A stretch of 64,000 nt of DNA from Amoeboaphelidium occidentale (Eukaryota): NCBI GenBank assembly GCA_023515795.1, contig JALGPX010000063.1, positions 1-64,000 of the forward strand. Direction: 5' to 3'. Numbering within the stretch: position 1 is the first letter of the stretch; each line of letters opens with the position of its first letter. Under the pieces are notes generated by a model. The model did no database searches and was not told the origin of the DNA. It was given only the letters and a program-made list of their open reading frames with translations. A program made the translations under genes and the position numbers. Of the stretch, positions 7,303-41,853 are shown one piece after another.

Positions 7303-8499
7303 ATGACCTCGAGCGTGCAAACGGATATCGATTCAACAGCTTCGCCACAGACCCTGTCTGTAGTCACTATCGTGTATCATCCGAAAGATGATTTGGCTAA
7401 TGCGAAAGAAGAAGAGTTTGATTTGGTTTTCGGTGACAAGATATCTGTTAGTGCTTTGGAGAGAGTTTTCAAGTTGAGATTTGTGGAGGAATGCGATATT
7501 GAAGGAAGGAATGAGATCGGCATTCCATTTGACGCATCCACTGGTGATAGTAGAAATTCTTTACAATTGGCTGAAGATGGCAAATTTCACATTACTGGTG
7601 AACCACAAATTGATGTTAGTCAGCACCAGCCGCAAAGTAAGTTTCATTGATCTTGCACTAATTTCTGTGCTGAATTGGTAGATCCTGATAATATTACTCT
7701 TATGATGAGCAAGATGATGTCAATGTATGAAACATTGTTAAAGATTCAGCACAGAAATCAAGTTGAGTATATTCGTAATGCGTTCCCTTTACTTGAATCT
7801 TCGACGCAAAAAGAATCCGCGAGGGGAAAGATCAACTTGGTATCATACTATAATTACAATCCTGGCAATCCGTCTAAGCTCCCTTCCAGATTAAAATGCA
7901 TGATTTCTGGTTGTTACTTCAGCGCTAAATATGTGACGATGGCTCACATATTCCAGAAACTTTGGGCAAGCAGAATCGATATGGTTGGCTTGGATGATGT
8001 GAATCATGTTCGCAACTTGTTGCTTCTGTTTCGACCTATTGAAGTTCACTTTGACCGTGGTGATTTGATCTTTATGTGGGACGAACAAACCAAACAACAT
8101 ACCTGCCGTATATTGAATCCTAGGATTAAAACTTTATCGATTGACGACGAAGGTAATCTCTATGAGCGACGTGTGGAGTACTAATATTTTATAGCTGATA
8201 ATCTCTGTGGACCAGCTGTTGCTGATAAAACGGGGATGACATTTGGTGATTTGGAAGGAAAAGTCCTGGATACTAATAACTCAAATCATATGCCATACAA
8301 GCGTTGTTTGGCTTTTCATGCTCAGATTGCAACAACTGCTGCTGCTAGTAAAAAATGGGTAAATCTGGACGATTATCCTATAAGCCCTTCTGCATGGAGT
8401 GATCTTGAAGATGAGAAGAAGGAAATTATTTTAAACTGGCTGGGTAACGGAGGGTTTGAAGGTTTAGGTGAAGTCGATGATTTAAATGAGAGTTTTTGA
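7303..8499 (+). CDS. HNH endonuclease (HNH_2-like), Crinkler-type effector; 3 exons
   Basis: CMISG...AHIF...VNHVRNLLLL...IEVHFDRG and PYKRCLAFHA motifs; introns 7637-7681 and 8153-8194 restore one open frame. Confidence 0.75.
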
Positions 8500-10322: not shown

Positions 10323-11561
10323 TTAGAGACAAGGATATATCATTTTTGGGTATTCAGCAATATCATGCTTTCCAGCCCAGTCAAAATCAATAATACGTAA
10401 TCTTTTGTCGGCCTCTGTTATCAAAACATTGCAAGACCTCAAGTCTCCGTGAACGTAACCCATTTCGCGAGTTTGACTTAAAAATTCTCTTGCTTGCTGA
10501 TACAACGACTCATCTTCAAAATCGTAGTCTTCTATCGATCTCGCGAAGAAATATTCTGTAACAACTATCAAACGATTATTATCGAATTGCTGGCAATCTA
10601 ATAATCTGGCTGCGAATCCTTTCGAGTAACAAAACTTGTGCATTTCAACATTGTACGTGGAAGTAAACTTCAAAACAACAATTGTGCCTGACCTTGTTCC
10701 CTTTGCAGCATATACTTTCCGACTAAACGTTGCGGCGTACTCAAGTGGTTCCGTTTCGCCATCTTTGATCTTGAAATCCGTGACAAAAGGATATGCAGAA
10801 GCAACAGGCCGATAAATACTAGAGCTCATGCAGTGAAGATACAACTTGATAGATTTGACTAGTCTTGCTATTCTGAAAAATTCCTCCTCTTCTGGCTTCT
10901 TCAACAATGAAACACTTGAATTCACAAAAGGAGCAACAATGATATCTTTATCAGTATTCACGATGCCACTTACACTGAAATAACAGCCTTCCAAGTCCAA
11001 TAATAGACATAGATACTGCAAGTTTGCCATGTAGATATCTTCAAAGCTTTTCCAATAGCAAGCAATGTTCCGCATGTATGGGTCAGAAAATCCTTTTCCG
11101 CGCTCACCTTTTATGTCCAAACAGCAGTACAATGGAAGTTTTCCATGTCTTAAACTTCCTTTGGTTGGATAACCGCCATAAAGATCAGAACTTTCCAGAG
11201 GATGTCCGGAATACTCTTCAAATGCGCTTGTGAAATCTTTAAATCTTGCACGCTCCCCTGTATAATTACCTCCCATCAAATCACAAATATTCTTGACAAA
11301 TAGACAATCCTTCTGATCAATTTCAACAGAGTCAATGTTCTTGTTGAACTCAAGAATCTCTTTGCAAAGAATTGTTATAGGCGGTTTCCTGGGTTCCTCT
11401 TCACACCTTCCACAAGTAATGTTATCAAGGTGACCGCTTCTTGAAAGTTTAGACCAAGAATATTCTTGCCTTGTACCAGCAAAGTACGACGGATCTTGTA
11501 GTATTCTAGCCGAAATCGCAAAGATGTTCTCAGAGACTTCAGAGTTCGTGATATTCTTCAC
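10323..11561 (-). pseudogene. Degenerate Crinkler-like REase + kinase protein, truncated at both ends
   Basis: DIKGERGKGFSDPY (REase-like); VVLKF, HGDLRSCNV, IIDFDWAG, EYP. Normal C-terminus missing and no clean start. Confidence 0.6.
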
Positions 11562-12013
11562 AATCAGGGCCTCTCTGCATTTACCTCCTAACCATTCTCC
11601 CGTTTTCGTGTCAAAAAAGCTTATCTGAGTGAATGACCAGGCCTTACCGGAGTACCATTCCCGGTAATGTAAATTCTGATATATGCCCGGGAGACGTGTT
11701 GAAACAACATAATGATCAGAGCTTCTTTGAATTTATCAACATTGTGACAGTTCTTAGTCGGAACAGCTTTCTCAGACCAATTCTCGTACTTTGCCGATAA
11801 CTTTTCAGGTAAAGTTATGAACCTCCTATGTTTTCATGTTAAGCCTCTACTGGCACAGAACTTGAATGTTCACATAAGTCCAGATGCTCGTTGCTCCTCT
11901 TCCTGCTTTAAGACCAACGGATTTAAAGCTTTACAGTTGCTGAGTAATAATAAATTTCTTTCAAATACAACAACACGATTTATTTCCATCATTTAGAATC
12001 TTTCGTGTGAAAT

Positions 12014-18538: not shown

Positions 18539-19815
18539 ATGCCTGACGGAGACGGTCCTCCTAAAGACGAAAAGAGCACATTACAAATGCAAGCGGGTCA
18601 GCATCATGGGCAGCAGCAACAGGAAGAAGGTGCGATGAGCTCGAGCATACATGGTCAAGGCGTAAGCAATCGATTTGCTGATCAACAGACATCTGATTAC
18701 TTCACCTACACACCAGTTCCTGTTCTTGCTCATCCTTCTTCGTATATGGTCACTGCGTATAACTCATATACTCCATCCTACTTTACTGCGATTCCAGTGG
18801 CTTCCATGGCGAACTTTCGTCCTTATAGCCAGCAACCTGGAATGATACCTGGTGTGCCTGCAGAATGGAATCACTATCATCCTCCTGGCTTCTACTATAT
18901 GCCTAATGGTTTGGTGTCCACTTCTGCTAGTCCTATACTTGTTATGCCCAATGAGCCCCAGCACCAAGTGCAAGTGCCAACTACAGAGAATTCTGATACT
19001 GATTCGGTTCGTCAATATCACGAAAGATTACATTCATTGTACTCTAATTACAATTTGCTTTCTAAACAGTCTAGCTCTACAAGTGGTTCTGTTCCAAGTA
19101 TGCAATCATCTGGTCCAAATTCTATAAGCAGTTTTGTGAAGGACGAAAGGAATGTTTACTTACAGGGCTTACCGCCTGATACTACTGAAGAAAGCCTAGC
19201 TGGCTTTATACCTGAAGGATTACGGGAGAAGTTGGTCTCCTCCAAGATTATATACAATCAGGATATCAAGTCTCATAGTTTAGGTCAGACAGAATTAGTC
19301 AACAACACTCAATGCAAGGGTTATGCCTTTCTGCTGTTCTCAGATTCTGCTTCTGCTTCGGCATTTATTAATCATATTAATACGGCAAATATACCAACAG
19401 AGTCCAATATGGCGGTAAAACAGAAAATTCACGCAAGCATTGCCAAAGAAAGTTTCAGCTCAAGATTAAGAGAGCTAGGCGCTGGCAAGGAAAGCAACTT
19501 GTATTTTGCGAATATTCCTCCTCATTTCGCAGAGAATGATCTTGTTGAAGTGGTTGAAAAGAAGCTTCAGATTTCTGGTGCAGTCGAGAGCTCCAAGATA
19601 TTGCGGAGTTCTGACGGCAAGAGTAGATGTGTTGGCTTTATTCGTTTCAAGACACCTCAGTATGCAGCCTTGTGCTTGAATGAAATGAACGGTTTTTTGA
19701 TCGAAGGGTAAGAATCTGCTTTTTTCTTTAATGCTTTAGAGCCATGTTACCTTTGCAAGTAAGGTATGCTGATAACAAGCAGCAGAAAGACTTGAAATTG
19801 TCGCGACAGCGGTAA
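18539..19815 (+). CDS. Two-RRM RNA-binding protein (RBMS/MSSP/Spo5-like)
   Basis: NVYLQGLP, CKGYAFLLF, SNLYFANIP, SRCVGFIRF, LQVRYAD; intron 19708-19739; a possible further intron 19812-19883 would extend the CDS to 19923. Confidence 0.75.
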
Positions 19816-19949
19816 TGATACTACAACTAATTTAACTATTGATTTATTGCTGCTCGGGTATTGATAATTTTGCGGCATCGTAGAAAAAGAATGAAAATAA
19901 CTGGCCCTTCGCTACAGGATTAGTTCAAATAAAACCAAATCTTACTTAA

Positions 19950-20071
19950 AAGAGCGTTACACGAATCGCATGATTTCTCGGCTACGCTGGTGGAGACTGT
20001 ACAAGTAAATATGCGAACATACTCACCTGTCTTTAACCACCAATTAAATTTTGCAGTTAGCTGACGAAACA
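19950..20071 (-). ncRNA. Putative Fanzor omega-RNA scaffold, copy A
   Basis: ACAGGUGAGUAUG-UUCG-CAUAUUUACUUGU hairpin closed by UGGUGG/CCACCA; second AGCGU/ACGCU hairpin. Confidence 0.6.
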
Positions 20072-20182
20072 TCATGCACGAGTCTTCCTGGAGAACGCAA
20101 GCGGTCTTTTACCACCATTTGCATTCAANATAACTGGCCCTTCGCTACAGGATTAGTTCAAATAAAACCAAATCTTACTTAG

Positions 20183-20304
20183 AAGAGCGTTACACGAATC
20201 GCGCGATTTCTCGGCTACGCTGGTGGCGACTGTACAAGTAACTATGCAGGCATAATCACCTGTCTTTAACCACCAATTAAATTTTGCAGTTAGCTGACGA
20301 AACA
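20183..20304 (-). ncRNA. Putative Fanzor omega-RNA scaffold, copy B
   Basis: Directly 3' of the Fanzor stop; ACAGGUGAUUAUG-CCUG-CAUAGUUACUUGU hairpin closed by UGGUGG/CCACCA; second hairpin 20186-20221. Confidence 0.6.
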
Positions 20305-20495
20305 TCATGCACGATTCTTCCTGGAGAACGCAAGCGGTCTTTTACCTTCATTTGCATTCAAATCCAAGAAAACGTGTCTGATATTTCGTGCAGCGTTAAT
20401 GTCCCTGTTCCAAACAGTTAAGCAATCTGAATTGCAGACTTTAACGCCCAAAACTTTGTCTGTTTCAACTCATGTAAACAGAAGGAACAGAACTT
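20305..20495 (-). pseudogene. Fanzor/TnpB nuclease C-terminal remnant (Zn finger + RuvC-III)
   Basis: KFCSFCLHELKQTKFW / GVKVCNSDCLTVWNRDINAARNIRHVFLDLNANEGKRPLAFSRKNRA*, with one 1-nt frameshift. Confidence 0.8.
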
Positions 20496-20708
20496 GCAGG
20501 ATTTCTTTGAGCTAGATATACCCCCTTTAAGAAAGCGCATTCGCACTCCAGCTCGCAGCATGTAGACGCTTGAGCTGGAGCTCTGCGCGATAAAAACAAG
20601 ATATAAATTCCAAAGAGACTATTTGGTGAACCCCTGCAACTTGGTATGCTTTAAGTTCTTGTTTGGAACGCTATCTGTTAAGAACTCGCAACTACGTGTC
20701 TATTGCTC

Positions 20709-21683
20709 TTAGTTCAGATCGTCAAAACTCTTATCAATGTATTTCAGCCATTTTCTGTGCTCATAGTCGTCTTCTTCATCACTTGATACTATAATTTTGC
20801 GCTTTGATGAGGAAGGCTGATAGTCTTCAGCAGTTTGCTTTCGCGGTCTCTTTTCATCCGACTTGTTATTGAGGTTGAGCCTAAAATAATTGTAATAATA
20901 TTCCCTGAGAGCGTCCTCGGATTTGCCCATCTGAGTTGCAAAATCTGTCCAGTCGATTTTACTGTCTTCTTCGTTAGCATACGTAGAATAGTAAATTTCT
21001 TCAAATTTCTTTTGATTTAGCTTTCCCTTCTTTGGCGAAGTACGTTTTTTCTTAGTCTTGGAGCCTTCTTTATTACTTGATGAGCCTGAATGATCGTCTG
21101 ATACGATTTCAATTACTTCGACCCGATTATCTTTTGTAGAGGTATCCGTTCCTGCCAATTTAAAGTATCTAGCCATTTTATCAATAATGTCTTGAGTAGC
21201 ATCTTTAAGTATCTCATGTTCTGCACGATCTTGGAGAGCTTCGTAACAAGCCATGCATTTATCCAAATAACTTTTGAGTTTCATAATATCATCCATTCTC
21301 ACGCTTATGTGGTCTTTAGGACTTGATTCTTTGTCGCTGGAGTGGTGGTTTGGACGTATGGGCTCTGGTGTAACTGATTGCTTCAATAGCAAAGCATTGC
21401 TTTCCTTGATATTATCATCAACTCTGTCCTTCTTAGAGACACCATCAAGTTTCGATGAGATATTATCCACCTTTCTCTCTATTGATCGAAGCATGTGTGC
21501 TAGTGTATCTATCTGAGTAAGTTTCCTCAAGTCCTTCTTTACATCAACGATCTGCTGATGTGATGGAGAATGATGATCTAAAGTTGTGACCATCCTGACC
21601 ATTCTTGTGACAAAGTCTTCAGGTGTGTTCCTACTTCTTTTGAAGTATTCCAGAGTATCAGGATCTGTTATTGAGATGTTCAT
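20709..21683 (-). CDS. Hypothetical nuclear protein with coiled-coils and a C-terminal Myb/SANT-like HTH
   Basis: IDWTDFATQMGKSEDALREYYYNY resembles a Myb-like helix-turn-helix; basic NLS-like tract; likely start MNISIT. Confidence 0.55.
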   Translation of the reverse strand: MNISITDPDTLEYFKRSRNTPEDFVTRMVRMVTTLDHHSPSHQQIVDVKKDLRKLTQIDTLAHMLRSIERKVDNISSKLDGVSKKDRVDDNIKESNALLLKQSVTPEPIRPNHHSSDKESSPKDHISVRMDDIMKLKSYLDKCMACYEALQDRAEHEILKDATQDIIDKMARYFKLAGTDTSTKDNRVEVIEIVSDDHSGSSSNKEGSKTKKKRTSPKKGKLNQKKFEEIYYSTYANEEDSKIDWTDFATQMGKSEDALREYYYNYFRLNLNNKSDEKRPRKQTAEDYQPSSSKRKIIVSSDEEDDYEHRKWLKYIDKSFDDLN

Positions 21684-26929: not shown

Positions 26930-29900
26930 TTAACTGCCAAGTGCGTTATCAGGAAGATTGACAGCACTCATTGCGCCCGTAATATCTTCTACGTCGTGGT
27001 CCCAAAGAAATACTTCTAAAGTTTGACCAATAGATTCAACTGTGATCGGTTTCGACAGAATATCATCGAAACAAGCCATATTCTCATTGGAGGAAACATC
27101 ATTAAAATCAATATCATTAGCAGTAACACCGATTATAGGGGTGTTTCGGTTGATATTGTCAACGCTCTTTATCATTCTTGCAGCAGTGAAACCAGAGATG
27201 ATAGGCATTTGAACATCCATGAAAATAATATCAAATCTAACTTGCCCCATCGCGCACCTTATAGCCTCCGCTCCATTTTTAACCAAAACACACTGACATT
27301 TGAATTTTCTTGTAAGAATATGACACAACACTCTGGATGCTAATGGATTATCATCTGCGACAAGCGCCGAGTACTCCTCATCTAAATGCAAATCATCAGG
27401 CGTCATTTCAGCAACACTCGGCTTTCTGGTTATTTGTGGTGAATCATACTTTGATATAATTTCCTCGTTTTCATGATAGTATTCGTCTGGAAGTATTCTT
27501 AGTCTCGTATTATCAGACAGGTTGTTAAGATTTGCTTTACCAGAAGAATGTTGCTCTTCTTGATCAATACTGGACGATGAACCATCTTGTCGTAGCTGAG
27601 ATTCTGCATCTGAATGGTTCCTCATGAATATGCCACTAGACTTCATAAATGCAGGACTTGGAAGGGAATTGCGTCGTTCATCACCAAAGTGTCCAGGAGG
27701 CATTTGATATAGTGGAATCGATGGGTAATCTTGTGATGTTTGAGATCTTCCAATTGTAAATAGTTCCAGCTCCTTCGATATCGGTGAAGTCATTCTACTT
27801 CTTGGGGCAGGTGGAACACTGCGATGTCTTGTTTTAGAGCCTGGCCCAGAGAAACTCTCGCTTGATGCATTGGTCATAGAATCCCGGCTAACGTTTGAGC
27901 TACTCGGAAACACGGGGATTCCTTCGGATTTCAACTTTCGCACAACATCGTTATTAGCCTTTTCCAACATCGCTAAATTCTTGTACGCAAAAGAACCAAA
28001 GTCTGTTTGAGTGCTTTGGCATGTGTCTACGGCAAGAGAGTCATTATCTGACGCTGATGGAAGATGAGATTTGCTATTTCGAGCCGAATTAGTACGGCTT
28101 CTTTGCGTTGAAAGTGAATTCTCAGATGATTGAAGATCTTCATCATTCATAAAACCTGCAGCATTTTGGTCCCTTGACAAAGTAGAATGAGGAGTATCAT
28201 TCTTAAACTCAATGTTACTATCAATGTTACTAGGCCCTGATAATTCTAATCCTCGGCTATCAAAATATTTGGTGTCGTCAACTTTCTCGGTATGAGGAAT
28301 AAAAGAGGCATCTTCGTACGGCAATGTCTCCCAATTGATGTTCTCAAACCATGGATGGCGCTTAACGTCTTCAGCACCGCCTCCACCGCAGCCAAGTCGC
28401 TCACCTATTTCAACTGTAAGTAATCTTTCAATAATATCCCTCGCAAAAACCGACAAAGGAATATCCTCGTAAAATTCCAAATTGTGGGCTAGTATGTTTT
28501 CGAATACATGCATTGGTGTTTCTGCGTGGAATGGAGGAAACCCATGAAGAAACTCGTATACAATAACTCCAAGAGACCACTAAAGAGATAAAAAAGAACG
28601 CTAAACACTTACCCAGTCAACAGAATAATCTTGAGCTATTCCAAGTATGCTTTCAGGAGCTAGATAGTCAGGGGTCCCAACAAAGTCGCTAGGCCCGCTT
28701 TCCTCTATGGCTTTTGATCCGAGTATTGAATTTTTGCTATCATTCCCAAGCAAGGATGAAGAAATAGAGACAACTGAACTTTTCCTACTAAGAGGACCAA
28801 TTACAGGAGATCTGTAATCCTCCCCAAGTAAAGATTGTGCTAAGTTAGCCGAGGGTGAATTGGTTACATTTCCATACAGCAGTGGAGCAATACCAGAAGA
28901 AGATTTCAGAGAGTTCATTTTCCCCTTCAAACTGGATGAAGAAGATTGTGTTGCAAGAGTAGCACCTGGCGACGGCGACGGCGGGCCAAAATCGATTGGT
29001 TCAATGAAGTTTGCTAGAGGAGACCCTCCTAAACTCTGAGCATTTGTCTTTCCTGGCTGTAAGCTGTTGATATTATCTTTCGTAGTATTACGGGCAGAAA
29101 ATTTTGGCTTGTTTCGAACATCCTGCGTTCTTGCTCTTCTTCCGAGAAATCCAACTCTTGACAATCCAAAGTCAGTCAATTTAATGTGACCTTTCTTGTC
29201 TATCAGTAAATTGTCCGGCTTCAAGTCGCGATGAGTAATTCCTCGAGAATGGAGATACTCCAACGCAAGAACAACTTCTGCAACGTACTGCCTTGCCCAA
29301 TCTTCATCCAAGCTGCCAATAGATTTTAAGAGCGCACTGCAGTCACCTCCGTTCAAGTATTCCATGACCAAGTACAGATATTCTCTACTTTGGAATGAAA
29401 AGAACAGTTTTACCACAAATGGCGAATCTATCAGCCCAAGAATTAGTTGTTCTGCCTTTACATTCATGACTTGATTTTTGTTGACCATATCTGTTTTCCG
29501 CAGCACTTTTATGGCATAGTAATCGCCAGTTAGCTTTTTCTTTGCCAAATAGACAGACCCAAAAGCCCCTTTGGAAATCGGCTTGAGTATTTCGAAATCT
29601 TTTATGGACGGCGCCGTTCTACTCAAAGAGATAGATGCTCCAGAAGCTTGAGACGATATACTTGTAGCGCGTTGTCTAGCAAAATCTTGATTCCCAACAC
29701 TTAGAAGTTTAGAATTCATATTAAAAACAGAAGGAGAGCTTAAAGGTGTAGGTATTGTCTCGATTTCCATTGTTTTCAGAAATTTTGCGGATGATACAGT
29801 CTTATTTGGAAGCGTTTTGAACAGGTTTGTATCGATTTGCAAAGGCTTGGTTGGATCAATGTTTAAAGATTTATCCAAATCGAATTCTTCTTGTAGTGTC

Positions 29901-32900
29901 TCTTCAAACTCTGGCAATAACTTTGACATTTTGATGAAATTGTTCAGCTTCTCACGTATAAGATGCTGTATTGTAACAGTAACTGGAACAAGGGAGGCAT
30001 CTGGTAGAGACTCCTCAGCAGGACATTGCCAGACTTGGAGCTGATCAAGAATATTTCTGGACATTTCATCCTGTTCTTCATTAGGAGATTTCAAAGCAGC
30101 AGCCAGTTCGACGCCCTCCAACAAATACAACAGCAAATCTCTAGTTTTGATCAACCGTTCAGTCTGCTCATTTTGATCATCCGTAGATATCGGAGCGCTC
30201 TGAGTCTTTTCGATATCTTCAGATAAAGTCTCAAGCTTTTGCTCGATCGCTGTTTGCAATTCCTTTAATTCGTCATCGCAGTTACGAATGTCCATATCTG
30301 ATCTGTGGATGGAAGCACAAATATCTGAATGAATCTCGAATTTCAGCGGCAGAATCATTCTTTCGCATATTCTACACAAAACCGGTTGAGTGCTATCAGC
30401 TGCTGTCGAAGGAGGTATCAGTGGAGAGGACTGTAAAGTATTATCCGCAGGAGTCATAACTACCGGCCTTGTCACCCACATAGAATGCGATAACGTATTA
30501 CCGGAAAAAACAGGAATACCTTTTCCCTCCATTGAGATAATCGATCCATCTGGTCTTACACAACGGTAATGTATTTCGACGGAATTATTTGGTTCCGAAA
30601 CAATTCGTCTGTTTGCTTCCTCCCAAACCTCCAAATCTCTGCTATCGACAACAAGAGAACCATTGGTTCCCACTAGAGCATTTGGTTCGTACCCAAATAC
30701 AGCGATACATGCAGGAGATATGTAACGAATAATCCCATCAAGACCCCATTCCATCAATACATTCTCATTTTGACCCGGTGAAACTTGCTGCTTCCATTCG
30801 GTTCTCGAAGACCCGTCAAGATTCTTGATAGACTTTGAGCTTTCAAGCGGAACTGTACTGACTCCTTTAACACTTTTTAAGTCTTCTCTCAATGATAGCT
30901 CGTCTGGAATTCCAGTTGCTGTGGTCAAATCTTCATCTGAATCTCTAGTTTGCTCGTCTAAAAGGCCAACGCTCCATTGCAGGTTTGATGAAGATTTGCT
31001 AAGTGCCTTTTTGCTGCTTAGTGATTTAACAATCTTTGGTGCCGTAGGCTTCTTTGGCGCTATTGATTTTTGTTTGTGATAATCTTTAGCATCAAACTCT
31101 AGAAACTCTACAAGTCTTGCTATGTTGCTGAAGCTGAGCAAAATCTTGGCAATATAAATACTCAAATCAAAACTAATTGTGTTTCGGTTTTTCTTTGAGG
31201 ATTTAGGACTGTATGCTTCCTTCTGCACTTTCTGAAGCTTTGAAACAATGTTGATGCAGACCTGTCTATCCATTAAATGAGTCAAATCTAAATCAGATAT
31301 TTCTTGGCATATTTGTAGAAGGTTCTCCAGTTGGCTTTTTACCGTTGTGATATTCTCCTCTTTCTTATTATTCTTTATGTAATTCGCAAAACTTTCGTTT
31401 AAACTCAGCAGAATGGATTCGATTTCTTCGTCACAATACGCTTTGGCCCCCTTCAGTTCGTTGCGAAGCTCTGAAAATCCTTTTAGGTATTCTGATAAAT
31501 CTCCATCTGATAAAGACCGGACGGCGGGAGCGTTTCCACTATCAATACTGTCGTTGTTAATACTTGCCGAAACACTGCTCCCAGATAAAGGACTGACAAG
31601 ATGCTTTCCAATGGGAGACCCTGACTTTGAAGTTGACACAAACAGACTTGGCTTATGAGAAAGCCTTTTCCGTGGGCTAGTACTATCACCGCTAGTCGCA
31701 CCAGCATCCACTTCAATAAACTCGGCAGAAGTTGATACTGAATGCCTTCGCCTTTGATTTTGGGCTGGTAATGCTAAATCCAAAGCAGATGTTCGAGAAT
31801 ATTCTGCCAGTTGCTGTTTCTGCAGATCTTTTGCAGTGACGGACCGTTTCATTGACCAGGATTGTCTGCTTTTAGTAGGAACTGCTACAGCAGAAGGGCT
31901 GGTTGATGCTTGTGACACGTTTTGTGATGAAGGAGATCCAATACTAGTTGGTGTGCTTGTAACAGAAACATTATTTGAAGACGGTACAGGCGATGATGAA
32001 TGTGATCTGTTTCTTGATTTCTTTAATCCAGAGAATATCTTTGGTTTAAACAATCTAAAAACAGGTGGCGTTTTCTCATTCTTGGAGACATGCTCTTCGT
32101 GCAAGCTCAAAGTAGTTTGACTGTCACTGTTATTCCCGTCAGAAACTGAAGAGTTGTCATTTACATCTTCAGTGCTGACATTCATTCTCAACTTGCTTCC
32201 TTGGCCAACTTCATGCGAATTACTAATTCTTCTAGAAATAGCTCCCTCCGAAAATGATGCTTTCCGCGTGGATGATTCTGATCCACTAGACACTGGTGTT
32301 TCAGTTACAGCACCTGCAGAATGATTAGCATGCAAAACATCACGCGATGCTATTTCATTCAAAGTCGATAGGGCATCGCCATCCGTGCTACTTCTACTTA
32401 GTCGTCTGGAAGAATAGCTTGATCTCCTCTGAACAGAAATTGGAATAGATCGAACTCTGCCATCAAGAGACACTGAACTGTATGATTCGTCTGTAATTGT
32501 AGAAGATATAGAGTCAGACTTTTGCCTTGTAGGAGATATTTTAGATCCAGATGGTGAAGTGAAGTGTGTTTTAGTTCCCGTAGACTTCGGTCCCTCTTCC
32601 GTTCCTTCGTCCATACTCGAAGAATGTTGCCGAGCTAACGACCTACTCGCAGTAATGCTCTTATCAGAATTGGAAAGTACTGATACTTGGCTTTTGTTCT
32701 CAGACGAAGCATCACTCATTTCATCAGCGGATTTCTTTAGTCGAACGGTTCGCTGAGCAGCAGACGATACATTCTTTAACGACCTTGAATTAAGTAAACT
32801 AGTTCCACTTTTACTCTTCCGCAGAACTTCCGTGGAATCTTTCCTCATAGTTTTTGCATTCAAAGATGAGCTATCAGATCCAGCAGAAGCAAGATCTTTG

Positions 32901-33151
32901 TCCCCATCAATTTCCGCTTTAGAACCCTGAGCGCTTGAGTCTGACGAATAATCGGTTACATTCCTTGTGATTCCTGCCTTGTGATGTTCATCGGCATGCT
33001 CCAACGGTACTGCGTATTCCAGGGGCTTGTCTTTAGTGTATGGCTCAGACATGGTGCGATGAACTGATCCAGCTCCTCTTAATCGTGCTCCCAAGCGCCT
33101 CTTAGTTGGAGTCTCCTCATCTAAATTCTCATGGTCTCCTTCGTGTTCCAT
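26930..33151 (-). CDS. RIM15: Rim15/Cek1 (Greatwall-like) kinase with PAS, AGC kinase with insert, and REC domain
   Basis: [39 protein letters not shown]; intron 28580-28612 gives DWWSLG; C-terminal receiver FDIIFMD. Confidence 0.9.
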
Positions 33152-33579
33152 TTGTAAGTTTTGAAGTTGAACTTGTTGGAATCAATTTTGACAACCGCTC
33201 AGGACTAAGCCACCACAAATGCTGTTGTTTCAACTCGCTAAGGAAAAGAAAATCAAAAAAGCAAACATGTTTCTATGATTTAGCAGGTACAAATGAGACA
33301 TCTCCGTTTTTGGAAGGATTTATTGAAATTGCAAGTTATGTCGGGAGTTATAAGAGCTGTTTCAAGAGCGCTAACTAACGCGAGAGCTCAAGAACTACGA
33401 AGATTCTAGAATATGGCTAACAGCGTAATAATCAATGAAATATTTAGCGTTCCGTTCTAGATTCTACATCTGTATCGTTTGTTTGCAATTTCGATGATAA
33501 GAGGTTCAGGTGGAGGCCTGACTATAAATAACTTGGCGGCATCAGTGATTGCAACAGATACAAATGTTTTGAGATACTG

Positions 33580-41818: not shown

Positions 41819-41853
<35 letters not shown>

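Follow-up and report, generated by a model that had tools for sequence, protein, structure and literature searches.

Within the 64,000-nt stretch of Amoeboaphelidium occidentale DNA analyzed here (the window; contig JALGPX010000063.1, positions 1 to 64,000), the minus strand carries the C-terminal remnant of a gene for Fanzor1, an RNA-guided DNA cutter, and, 3' of its stop codon, a structured tail that ends at a TTAT direct repeat (Table 1). When a duplicated 232-nt part is collapsed, the order is left end, about 64 Fanzor codons with a frameshift, and tail. Other copies of the element have one extra base at the frameshift site. The C-terminal zinc finger and RD motif are present at the locus, and the RuvC DPG and E residues and the 600-700 aa length are absent. 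The match of the remnant to Pfam Cas12f1-like_TNB (E 1e-3) was under the cut-off.

Among 1.84 billion representatives, 97 relatives of the remnant fragment were found. The best of these, P0001 (93% identical), and a member of its cluster, P0099 (KAI3657174.1), are annotated from A. occidentale. P0099 is annotated at 325 aa and has the RuvC triad DPG/E/RD. Its final 16 residues, as annotated, are translated from the same tail region, and the tail is in this way linked to a copy that bears Fanzor. The sequence-only reading of this DNA had proposed looking for the tail at Fanzor ends elsewhere, and P0099 is such a case within the species. The annotated C-terminus of P0099 is a wrongly called exon that crosses the omega region.

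Solved structures were searched with a profile built from 18 sequences, P0099 and 17 of its long relatives. The best matches were SpuFz1 (E 2.7e-21), PpFz1 (6.5e-14) and GtFz1 (2.9e-11), with the next at 3.3e-5, so the protein is a Fanzor1, nearer to that group than to TnpB or Fanzor2; a Fanzor2/IS607 identity was rejected because the Fanzor1 structures were matched first. P0004 alone gave no match to solved structures. No full-length cognate Fanzor was found: relatives of 570-2000 aa were at best 34-50% identical to P0099, and those of 178-569 aa at best 40-53%. A word-indexed search with a 53-aa fragment (0 of 2 candidates), a search of viral contigs with P0099 (0 of 4 stretches) and an exact 21-nt pattern search of viral and metagenome contigs (0 matches) were negative. 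A. occidentale has several further Fanzor1 families; several of its other Fanzor1 proteins (P0104, P0105, P0113, P0026) contain internal repeats and look mis-assembled. Contigs from prokaryotic MAGs named as Nitrosocosmicus, Gallionella and Acidobacteriota (L089-L092) also gave Fanzor1-like matches; they are possibly eukaryotic or viral contigs in those bins.

Table 1. Features of the Fanzor1 element and its tail, in window coordinates. A and B are the two assembled copies of the 3' 232 nt.
Feature	Position	Strand	Remarks
Non-autonomous Fanzor1 ("ghost"-type) element, as assembled	19897..20593	-	About 465 bp (20130-20593) after collapsing the 232-nt overlap
TTAT, left end	20590..20593	-	Shared base extends it to TTTAT; predicted target-adjacent motif, putative TAM
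TTAT, right end	19897..19900 (also 20130-20133 in B)	-	Direct repeat bounding the element
Left-end hairpin	20535..20588	.	Stable on both strands (z -3.1, -3.2); perfect 9-bp arms 20546-20554 and 20572-20580
Fanzor1 C-terminal remnant	20305..20496	-	About 64 codons, with zinc finger and WNRD motif; frameshift near 20444-20448; stop 20305-20307
Predicted omega-RNA scaffold, copy B	20130..20310	-	181 nt; starts shortly ahead of the stop codon and ends with the terminal TTAT; placed by analogy to PMC10432273 and PMC10711439
Predicted first stem-loop	20293..20310	-	7 bp, one bulge, over the stop codon; in the MFE of B; longer competing pairing in A
Predicted closing stem UAACUG/CAGUUA, 5' strand	20287..20292	-	Partner 20131-20136 takes in TTA of the terminal repeat; probability about 0.36 (B), about 0.7 (A)
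Outer stem UGGUGG/CCACCA	20221..20275	-	Pair kept by 4 of 5 variants; the fifth probably compensated in one contig
13-bp hairpin	20234..20263 (B), 20001-20030 (A)	-	Family majority: pair 20255/20242 is U.U, loop CUUG
AGCGU/ACGCU hairpin	20186..20221	-	Alternative fold, excludes the 3' domain
Predicted 3' domain	20137..20188	-	GCUCUUC/GAAGGGC stem bearing a second hairpin (20153-20171); 3 variants keep and 6 break pairs
Copy A	19897..20128	-	The 3' 232 nt of the element read a second time; probably contig-end overlap with another family variant or haplotype
Scaffold joint, single N	20129..20129	.	Between A and B
Predicted guide segment	19876..19896	-	Host flank beyond the right end; putative

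The ends of the element were mapped over 19500-21000 with contigs of four public sequencing runs (X1-X4). Contigs with mutually unlike flanks ended at 20594/20595 (at least 16 in X1, 17 in X2, 6 in X3 and 21 in X4), and contigs also ended at 19893-19896 (at least 5, 6, 7 and 5, respectively). Depth in X1 was about 104 in the flanks and in the thousands within the element, a measure that does not equal copy number. In one X4 contig the two flanks are only 149 letters apart, close to the 156 that an empty site should have, and this is an empty allele. In a third allele, seen in X2 and X4, 3,782 unrelated letters begin after the same TTAT and 20594-20652 are missing; this is a different insertion at the same site, perhaps by another element with the same target. 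Of the features of Spu-1-type ghosts, multiple copies, both ends, a retained omega region and the lack of an intact Fanzor ORF were found, and terminal inverted repeats were not. The predicted guide has no second match within the window. At the left end (20520-20594), X1 depth rose to about 53,000, which exceeds the depth over the remainder of the element several-fold, and loose contig ends were seen at 20509 and 20558; the left-end hairpin is probably common to other short element families.

The 13-bp hairpin that the sequence-only reading had described on the minus strand, 3' of the Fanzor stop, reads as quoted in both copies and was predicted with pair probabilities of 0.98-1.00. It needs its G-U pairs and is a fold of the minus strand only. 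A scan of both strands of the 64 kb for hairpins of at least 13 bp (G-U allowed, loop 3-8) returned copies A and B alone, besides a simple-repeat tract near 41850. The outer stem UGGUGG/CCACCA, which had been read as closing the hairpin, indeed encloses it with a pair probability of 0.65-1.00. The GAC/GUC closure claimed with it needs the A and C of the hairpin's first two pairs and had a probability of 0.00 in both copies.

The 178-nt tail from stop codon to element end had minus-strand z-scores of -3.74 (B) and -3.31 (A), as compared to +0.19 (B) and -0.77 (A) on the plus strand (60 shuffles each). Versions of about 200 nt gave -3.82 (B) and -3.30 (A), and 2 of 146 background strand-windows (300 to 57,300) reached z -3.3. 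The Fanzor coding remnant (20310-20480, minus strand) had a z-score of -3.67, versus -1.18 on the plus strand; being as strongly folded as the tail, it leaves the 5' boundary of the scaffold uncertain, and its fold may be the reason that ghosts retain the remnant.

The second claimed hairpin, AGCGU/ACGCU, formed with a probability of about 0.7 in copy A and was nearly absent in copy B (0.02), where it was outcompeted by the GCUCUUC/GAAGGGC stem (0.97-0.99). It had also been said to vary in its loop only, and family variants at 20186 and 20188 lie outside the loop. The first stem-loop and closing stem were predicted in copy B, both with competing folds, and no variation occurred within them. 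A search of Rfam with the tail gave three matches, each with E above 2 and under the gathering score.

Copies A and B form a direct repeat of 232 nt (94.8% identity, 12 mismatches in 232) placed exactly head-to-tail with one N between them; a repeat search gave it as 233 nt at 94% identity (B 20127-20359, A 19894-20126). All nine N gaps of the window are straddled by direct repeats of 105-287 nt, seven of them exactly head-to-tail, and A and B are therefore probably one locus assembled twice, that is, a contig-end overlap joined by the scaffolder. Alternatively, the 3' half of the element might be truly duplicated in tandem, which would give two scaffolds with different guides. In favor of this, the 5.2% divergence of A and B exceeds most other gap overlaps (0.4-2.4%, 1-5 mismatches) and A-type letters are present in run X1 at depth 261. 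The mismatch excess would fit a contig that ran through the repeat family with the letters of another member, or two haplotypes. As the joint is a single N, the start of copy B coincides with the element end, a point at which a repeat branches, and every other N gap of the window shows the same pattern, we regard the tandem duplication as quite improbable; no contig bridges the joint among the X1 contigs listed, which is a weak argument against it. The other gaps with a near-identical straddling repeat are at 247, 6264, 15508, 16510, 42931, 43170, 43801 and 56272, and further "tandem duplications" described in this window are likely to be overlap artefacts as well.

The comparison of A and B had been read as built-in covariation, with a U-G pair in B swapped to G-U in A and the loop changed from CCUG to UUCG. 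The letters are as stated, but they do not amount to covariation. In a test of the two sequences, 267 of 500 shuffles equalled the observed covariation. Family variation was then read on a single-copy reference in runs X1, X4, X6 and X8, with 40 of 48 variant rows used. On the RNA strand, U was found at 20242 at depths of 2802/2961 (X1), 678/707 (X4), 375/375 (X6) and 13/13 (X8), and X2 and X3 have U there too. G at 20255 was seen at 261/5545 in X1 (one contig) and at zero in X4, X6 and X8, and two X4 contigs have U.C at 20255/20242. P0099 has Ile and Tyr over these sites, from which U follows for 20255 and either U or C for 20242; the corresponding residues are Ile/stop in B and Ser/Tyr in A. 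The family majority and the Fanzor-bearing copy are thus unpaired at this position, and A (G-U) and B (U-G) are each one change away from them: the paired differences are two separate single changes. The claim of covariation fails for this reason, and A and B are probably one locus rather than two. A double change between near-identical copies across an assembly gap seemed compensatory until the family revealed an unpaired position, which calls for caution with comparisons of this kind. The majority loop is CUUG, with variants CCUG, CUCG, UUUG and UUCG; UUCG was rejected as a selected tetraloop, being a minority variant closed by G-C, where cUUCGg is the usual form (PMC10401711). The G of copy B at 20242 and at 20227 is not clearly present in X1 contigs; contigs drop rare variants, so its absence does not mark an error.

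A total of 44 unphased variants (40 rows and 4 from run mapping, none dropped) was classed against the named helices, a test of low power. In the whole model 11 variants keep a pair, 11 break one and 22 are unpaired, with 13.9 breaks expected (p = 0.20). For the hairpin and outer stem, 6 keep and 4 break (p = 0.13). The 18 variants classed as occurring in at least two runs or copies included 3 breaks versus 5.3 expected (p = 0.16), and the 3' domain had 6 breaks versus 4.5 expected. Pair-breaking changes were not significantly depleted in any test (p from 0.13 to 0.5). A common change at 20186 (173/635 in X6), which counts in favor of structure, replaces a U-G pair of the 3' stem by C-G but breaks the AGCGU/ACGCU hairpin.

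The sequence-only reading had concluded that the RNA is under structural selection although its gene is dead. That an omega-RNA was kept by purifying selection on structure after gene death, with the double change between A and B compensatory, is in our view doubtful, although several observations are compatible with it. None of the nine A/B differences breaks a modelled helix, and five are in loops; in the hairpin and outer stem, six variants were found in at least two runs, of which four are unpaired, two keep a pair and none breaks one, and the outer stem has four pair-keeping changes in all. One single X4 contig probably carries a true G-C to A-U double change, 20270 with 20226, as judged from unphased depth sums (35.3 = 20.8 + 14.5), and the majority CUUG loop closed by G-C (gCUUGc) is a stable tetraloop treated in PMC10401711. 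Against this, the same X4 contig opens 20257/20240 as well, the 13-bp stem is broken by three single-contig variants, all tests were non-significant (p 0.13-0.49), and the key pair is U.U in the majority. Two thirds of the possible changes on either side of a U.U make a pair, so two pair-making changes should be unremarkable. The sequence-only reading had missed that the locus is one member of a multi-copy mobile element with fixed ends. Recent copying of the element suffices to explain an intact fold beside a dead gene, and is most simply why the fold is intact at this locus.

The tail was also compared with 92 distant Fanzor-like loci (31-80% identity over short stretches). No convincing nucleotide match was found among them, the best (E 0.04) being an A/T-rich 21-mer off the gene end. 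A two-sequence covariance model matched 0 of the 92 loci with filters on; with filters off, 30 loci yielded 22 matches (E 0.79-9.7), none of them full-length behind a Fanzor stop.

The best reading of the tail is the omega-RNA scaffold of a "ghost" Fanzor1 element, which we consider likely. Of the original proposal of a putative omega-RNA, the position, the strand-specific fold and the presence of the same tail on a Fanzor1 copy with catalytic residues hold up; the built-in covariation does not, and selection on the structure gains no significant support from the family variation. The tail lies where omega-RNAs lie, on the gene's strand from the stop at 20305-20307 to the end at 20130/19897, with a multi-stem fold on that strand. 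Taken together, we are fairly confident that this region forms the right end of a short, non-autonomous Fanzor1 element present in multiple copies, with a likely omega-RNA scaffold, and that A and B are probably one locus assembled twice that differs by single changes. Instead, the hairpins might act at the DNA level and mark the right end for a transposase of the single-strand kind (Helitron2- or HUH-type), or they might be a passive, decayed scaffold, with the ghosts making no guide RNA. Several observations would suit this. No inverted pair joins the element's two ends, that is, no terminal inverted repeats were found; the left-end hairpin is strand-symmetric; deletion variants in the family have lost parts of the hairpin domain; and depth is several-fold higher over the last 60 nt than over the hairpin core, so many copies retain the tip alone. 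A 5' terminal hairpin, as in Helitron2, is present, and asymmetric inverted repeats of at least 8 nt were not found in the Helitron2 positions (0-2 bp from the 5' end, 20-30 bp from the 3' end). The right-end fold, however, depends on G-U pairs and is confined to the strand on which the Fanzor gene lies, its 180 nt reach from the stop codon to the element end, as is the case for omega-RNAs, and ghost omega-RNAs of SpuFz1 were functional (PMC10432273). We therefore hold DNA-level signals or a decayed scaffold to be unlikely.

If the omega-RNA reading is right, every step beyond the fold would follow by analogy to characterized Fanzor1 systems. A minus-strand transcript would run through the tail into the flank, possibly by read-through from the gene ending at 20709, and would be trimmed to a scaffold of about 180 nt with a flank-derived guide of about 15-20 nt. 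The scaffold would consist of the 7-bp first stem-loop, the closing stem using the terminal TTAT, and the internal hairpins. An intact Fanzor1 acting in trans could then cut empty alleles beside a TTAT-type motif, and such cutting would favor retention of the insertion. A wider and rather speculative picture is a TIR-less Fanzor1 family in TTAT sites, moved by another transposase, in which ghosts scattered over the aphelid genome would each make a scaffold of about 180 nt with its own guide, and a few intact Fanzor1 copies would police this genome-wide set of sites in trans. No transposase was found for the aphelid element.

The nearest precedent is Fanzor1 of Spizellomyces punctatus (Spu-1), in which ghost loci with functional omega-RNAs are described (PMC10432273). 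As in the Spu-1 ghosts presented there, the aphelid element is short and multi-copy (~550 nt there, ~465 here), has no intact Fanzor gene, keeps the region from stop to right end, and has a short conserved motif ahead of its left end. In the same account the inverted repeats of Spu-1 measure 30 nt and its scaffold 75 nt, whereas here no TIRs and a predicted scaffold of ~180 nt were found, and the last ~64 Fanzor codons are retained in the aphelid element, unlike Spu-1. The Spu-1 RNAs were sequenced and assayed, as stated there, and the aphelid scaffold is known from sequence alone.

The predicted RNA is similar in architecture to the 150-nt omega-RNA of Guillardia theta GtFz1, which is long and multi-stem, with a 7-bp first stem-loop, overlap with the coding end and a T/A-rich motif (PMC11423790, PMC10432273); the 7-bp stem here is predicted and has a competing fold. 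A 7-bp SL1 is conserved in the three Fz1 structures described in PMC11423790, and the solved Fanzor1 complexes contain RNAs of 75-150 nt, shorter than the ~180 nt predicted for the aphelid. As in SfAV and related Fanzor1 reRNAs, the target-site repeat is predicted inside the terminal scaffold stem (PMC10711439), and the repeat is of the 4-bp TTAN type (PMC3627910); these elements have 13-bp terminal inverted repeats and the aphelid element has none. The absence of TIRs, an AT-rich direct repeat and many copies are shared with MCi-5 (Mucor) and CMe-1A with TE-N2_CMe (Cyanidioschyzon), as are short derivatives with a common 5' end and unclassified transposition (PMC3627910). The MCi-5 repeat given there is ATTTAT versus TTAT here, the hosts are different, and the likeness is one of described features. 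Extra RNA copies are reported in Chlamydomonas (PMC10530073).

Ghost omega-RNA loci and aphelid Fanzors in published tables are thus already known. Amoeboaphelidium proteins occur at least 38 times in the supplementary tables of PMC10432273 and 112 times, P0099 included, in those of PMC10711439, and are absent from two supplementary files of PMC10530073. Among the papers listed by the literature searches, no main-text description of the element or its RNA was found. As it stands, the locus is a further ghost omega-RNA locus with a structured, probably genuine scaffold. If confirmed, it would extend the known Fanzor1 scaffolds by a long one with multiple stems and a predicted motif of the TTAT type, found in the sister group of fungi, and its polymorphic site, with filled, empty and differently filled alleles, would suit tests of guide-driven ghost retention in the native host.

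Elsewhere in the window, 32 nt of an RRM gene (19708-19739), bounded by GT..AG, are missing from one X3 contig but not from X1, X2 or X4; they are probably an intron, which hints at X3 being an RNA run. A stretch of broken ORFs contains an HNH_2 endonuclease domain (E 1e-9, 7651-8184, plus strand) and a weak kinase-like ORF (10323-11732, minus strand). Adjacent ORFs on the minus strand at 26930-33181 encode PAS, protein kinase and response-regulator domains, an architecture like that of Rim15.
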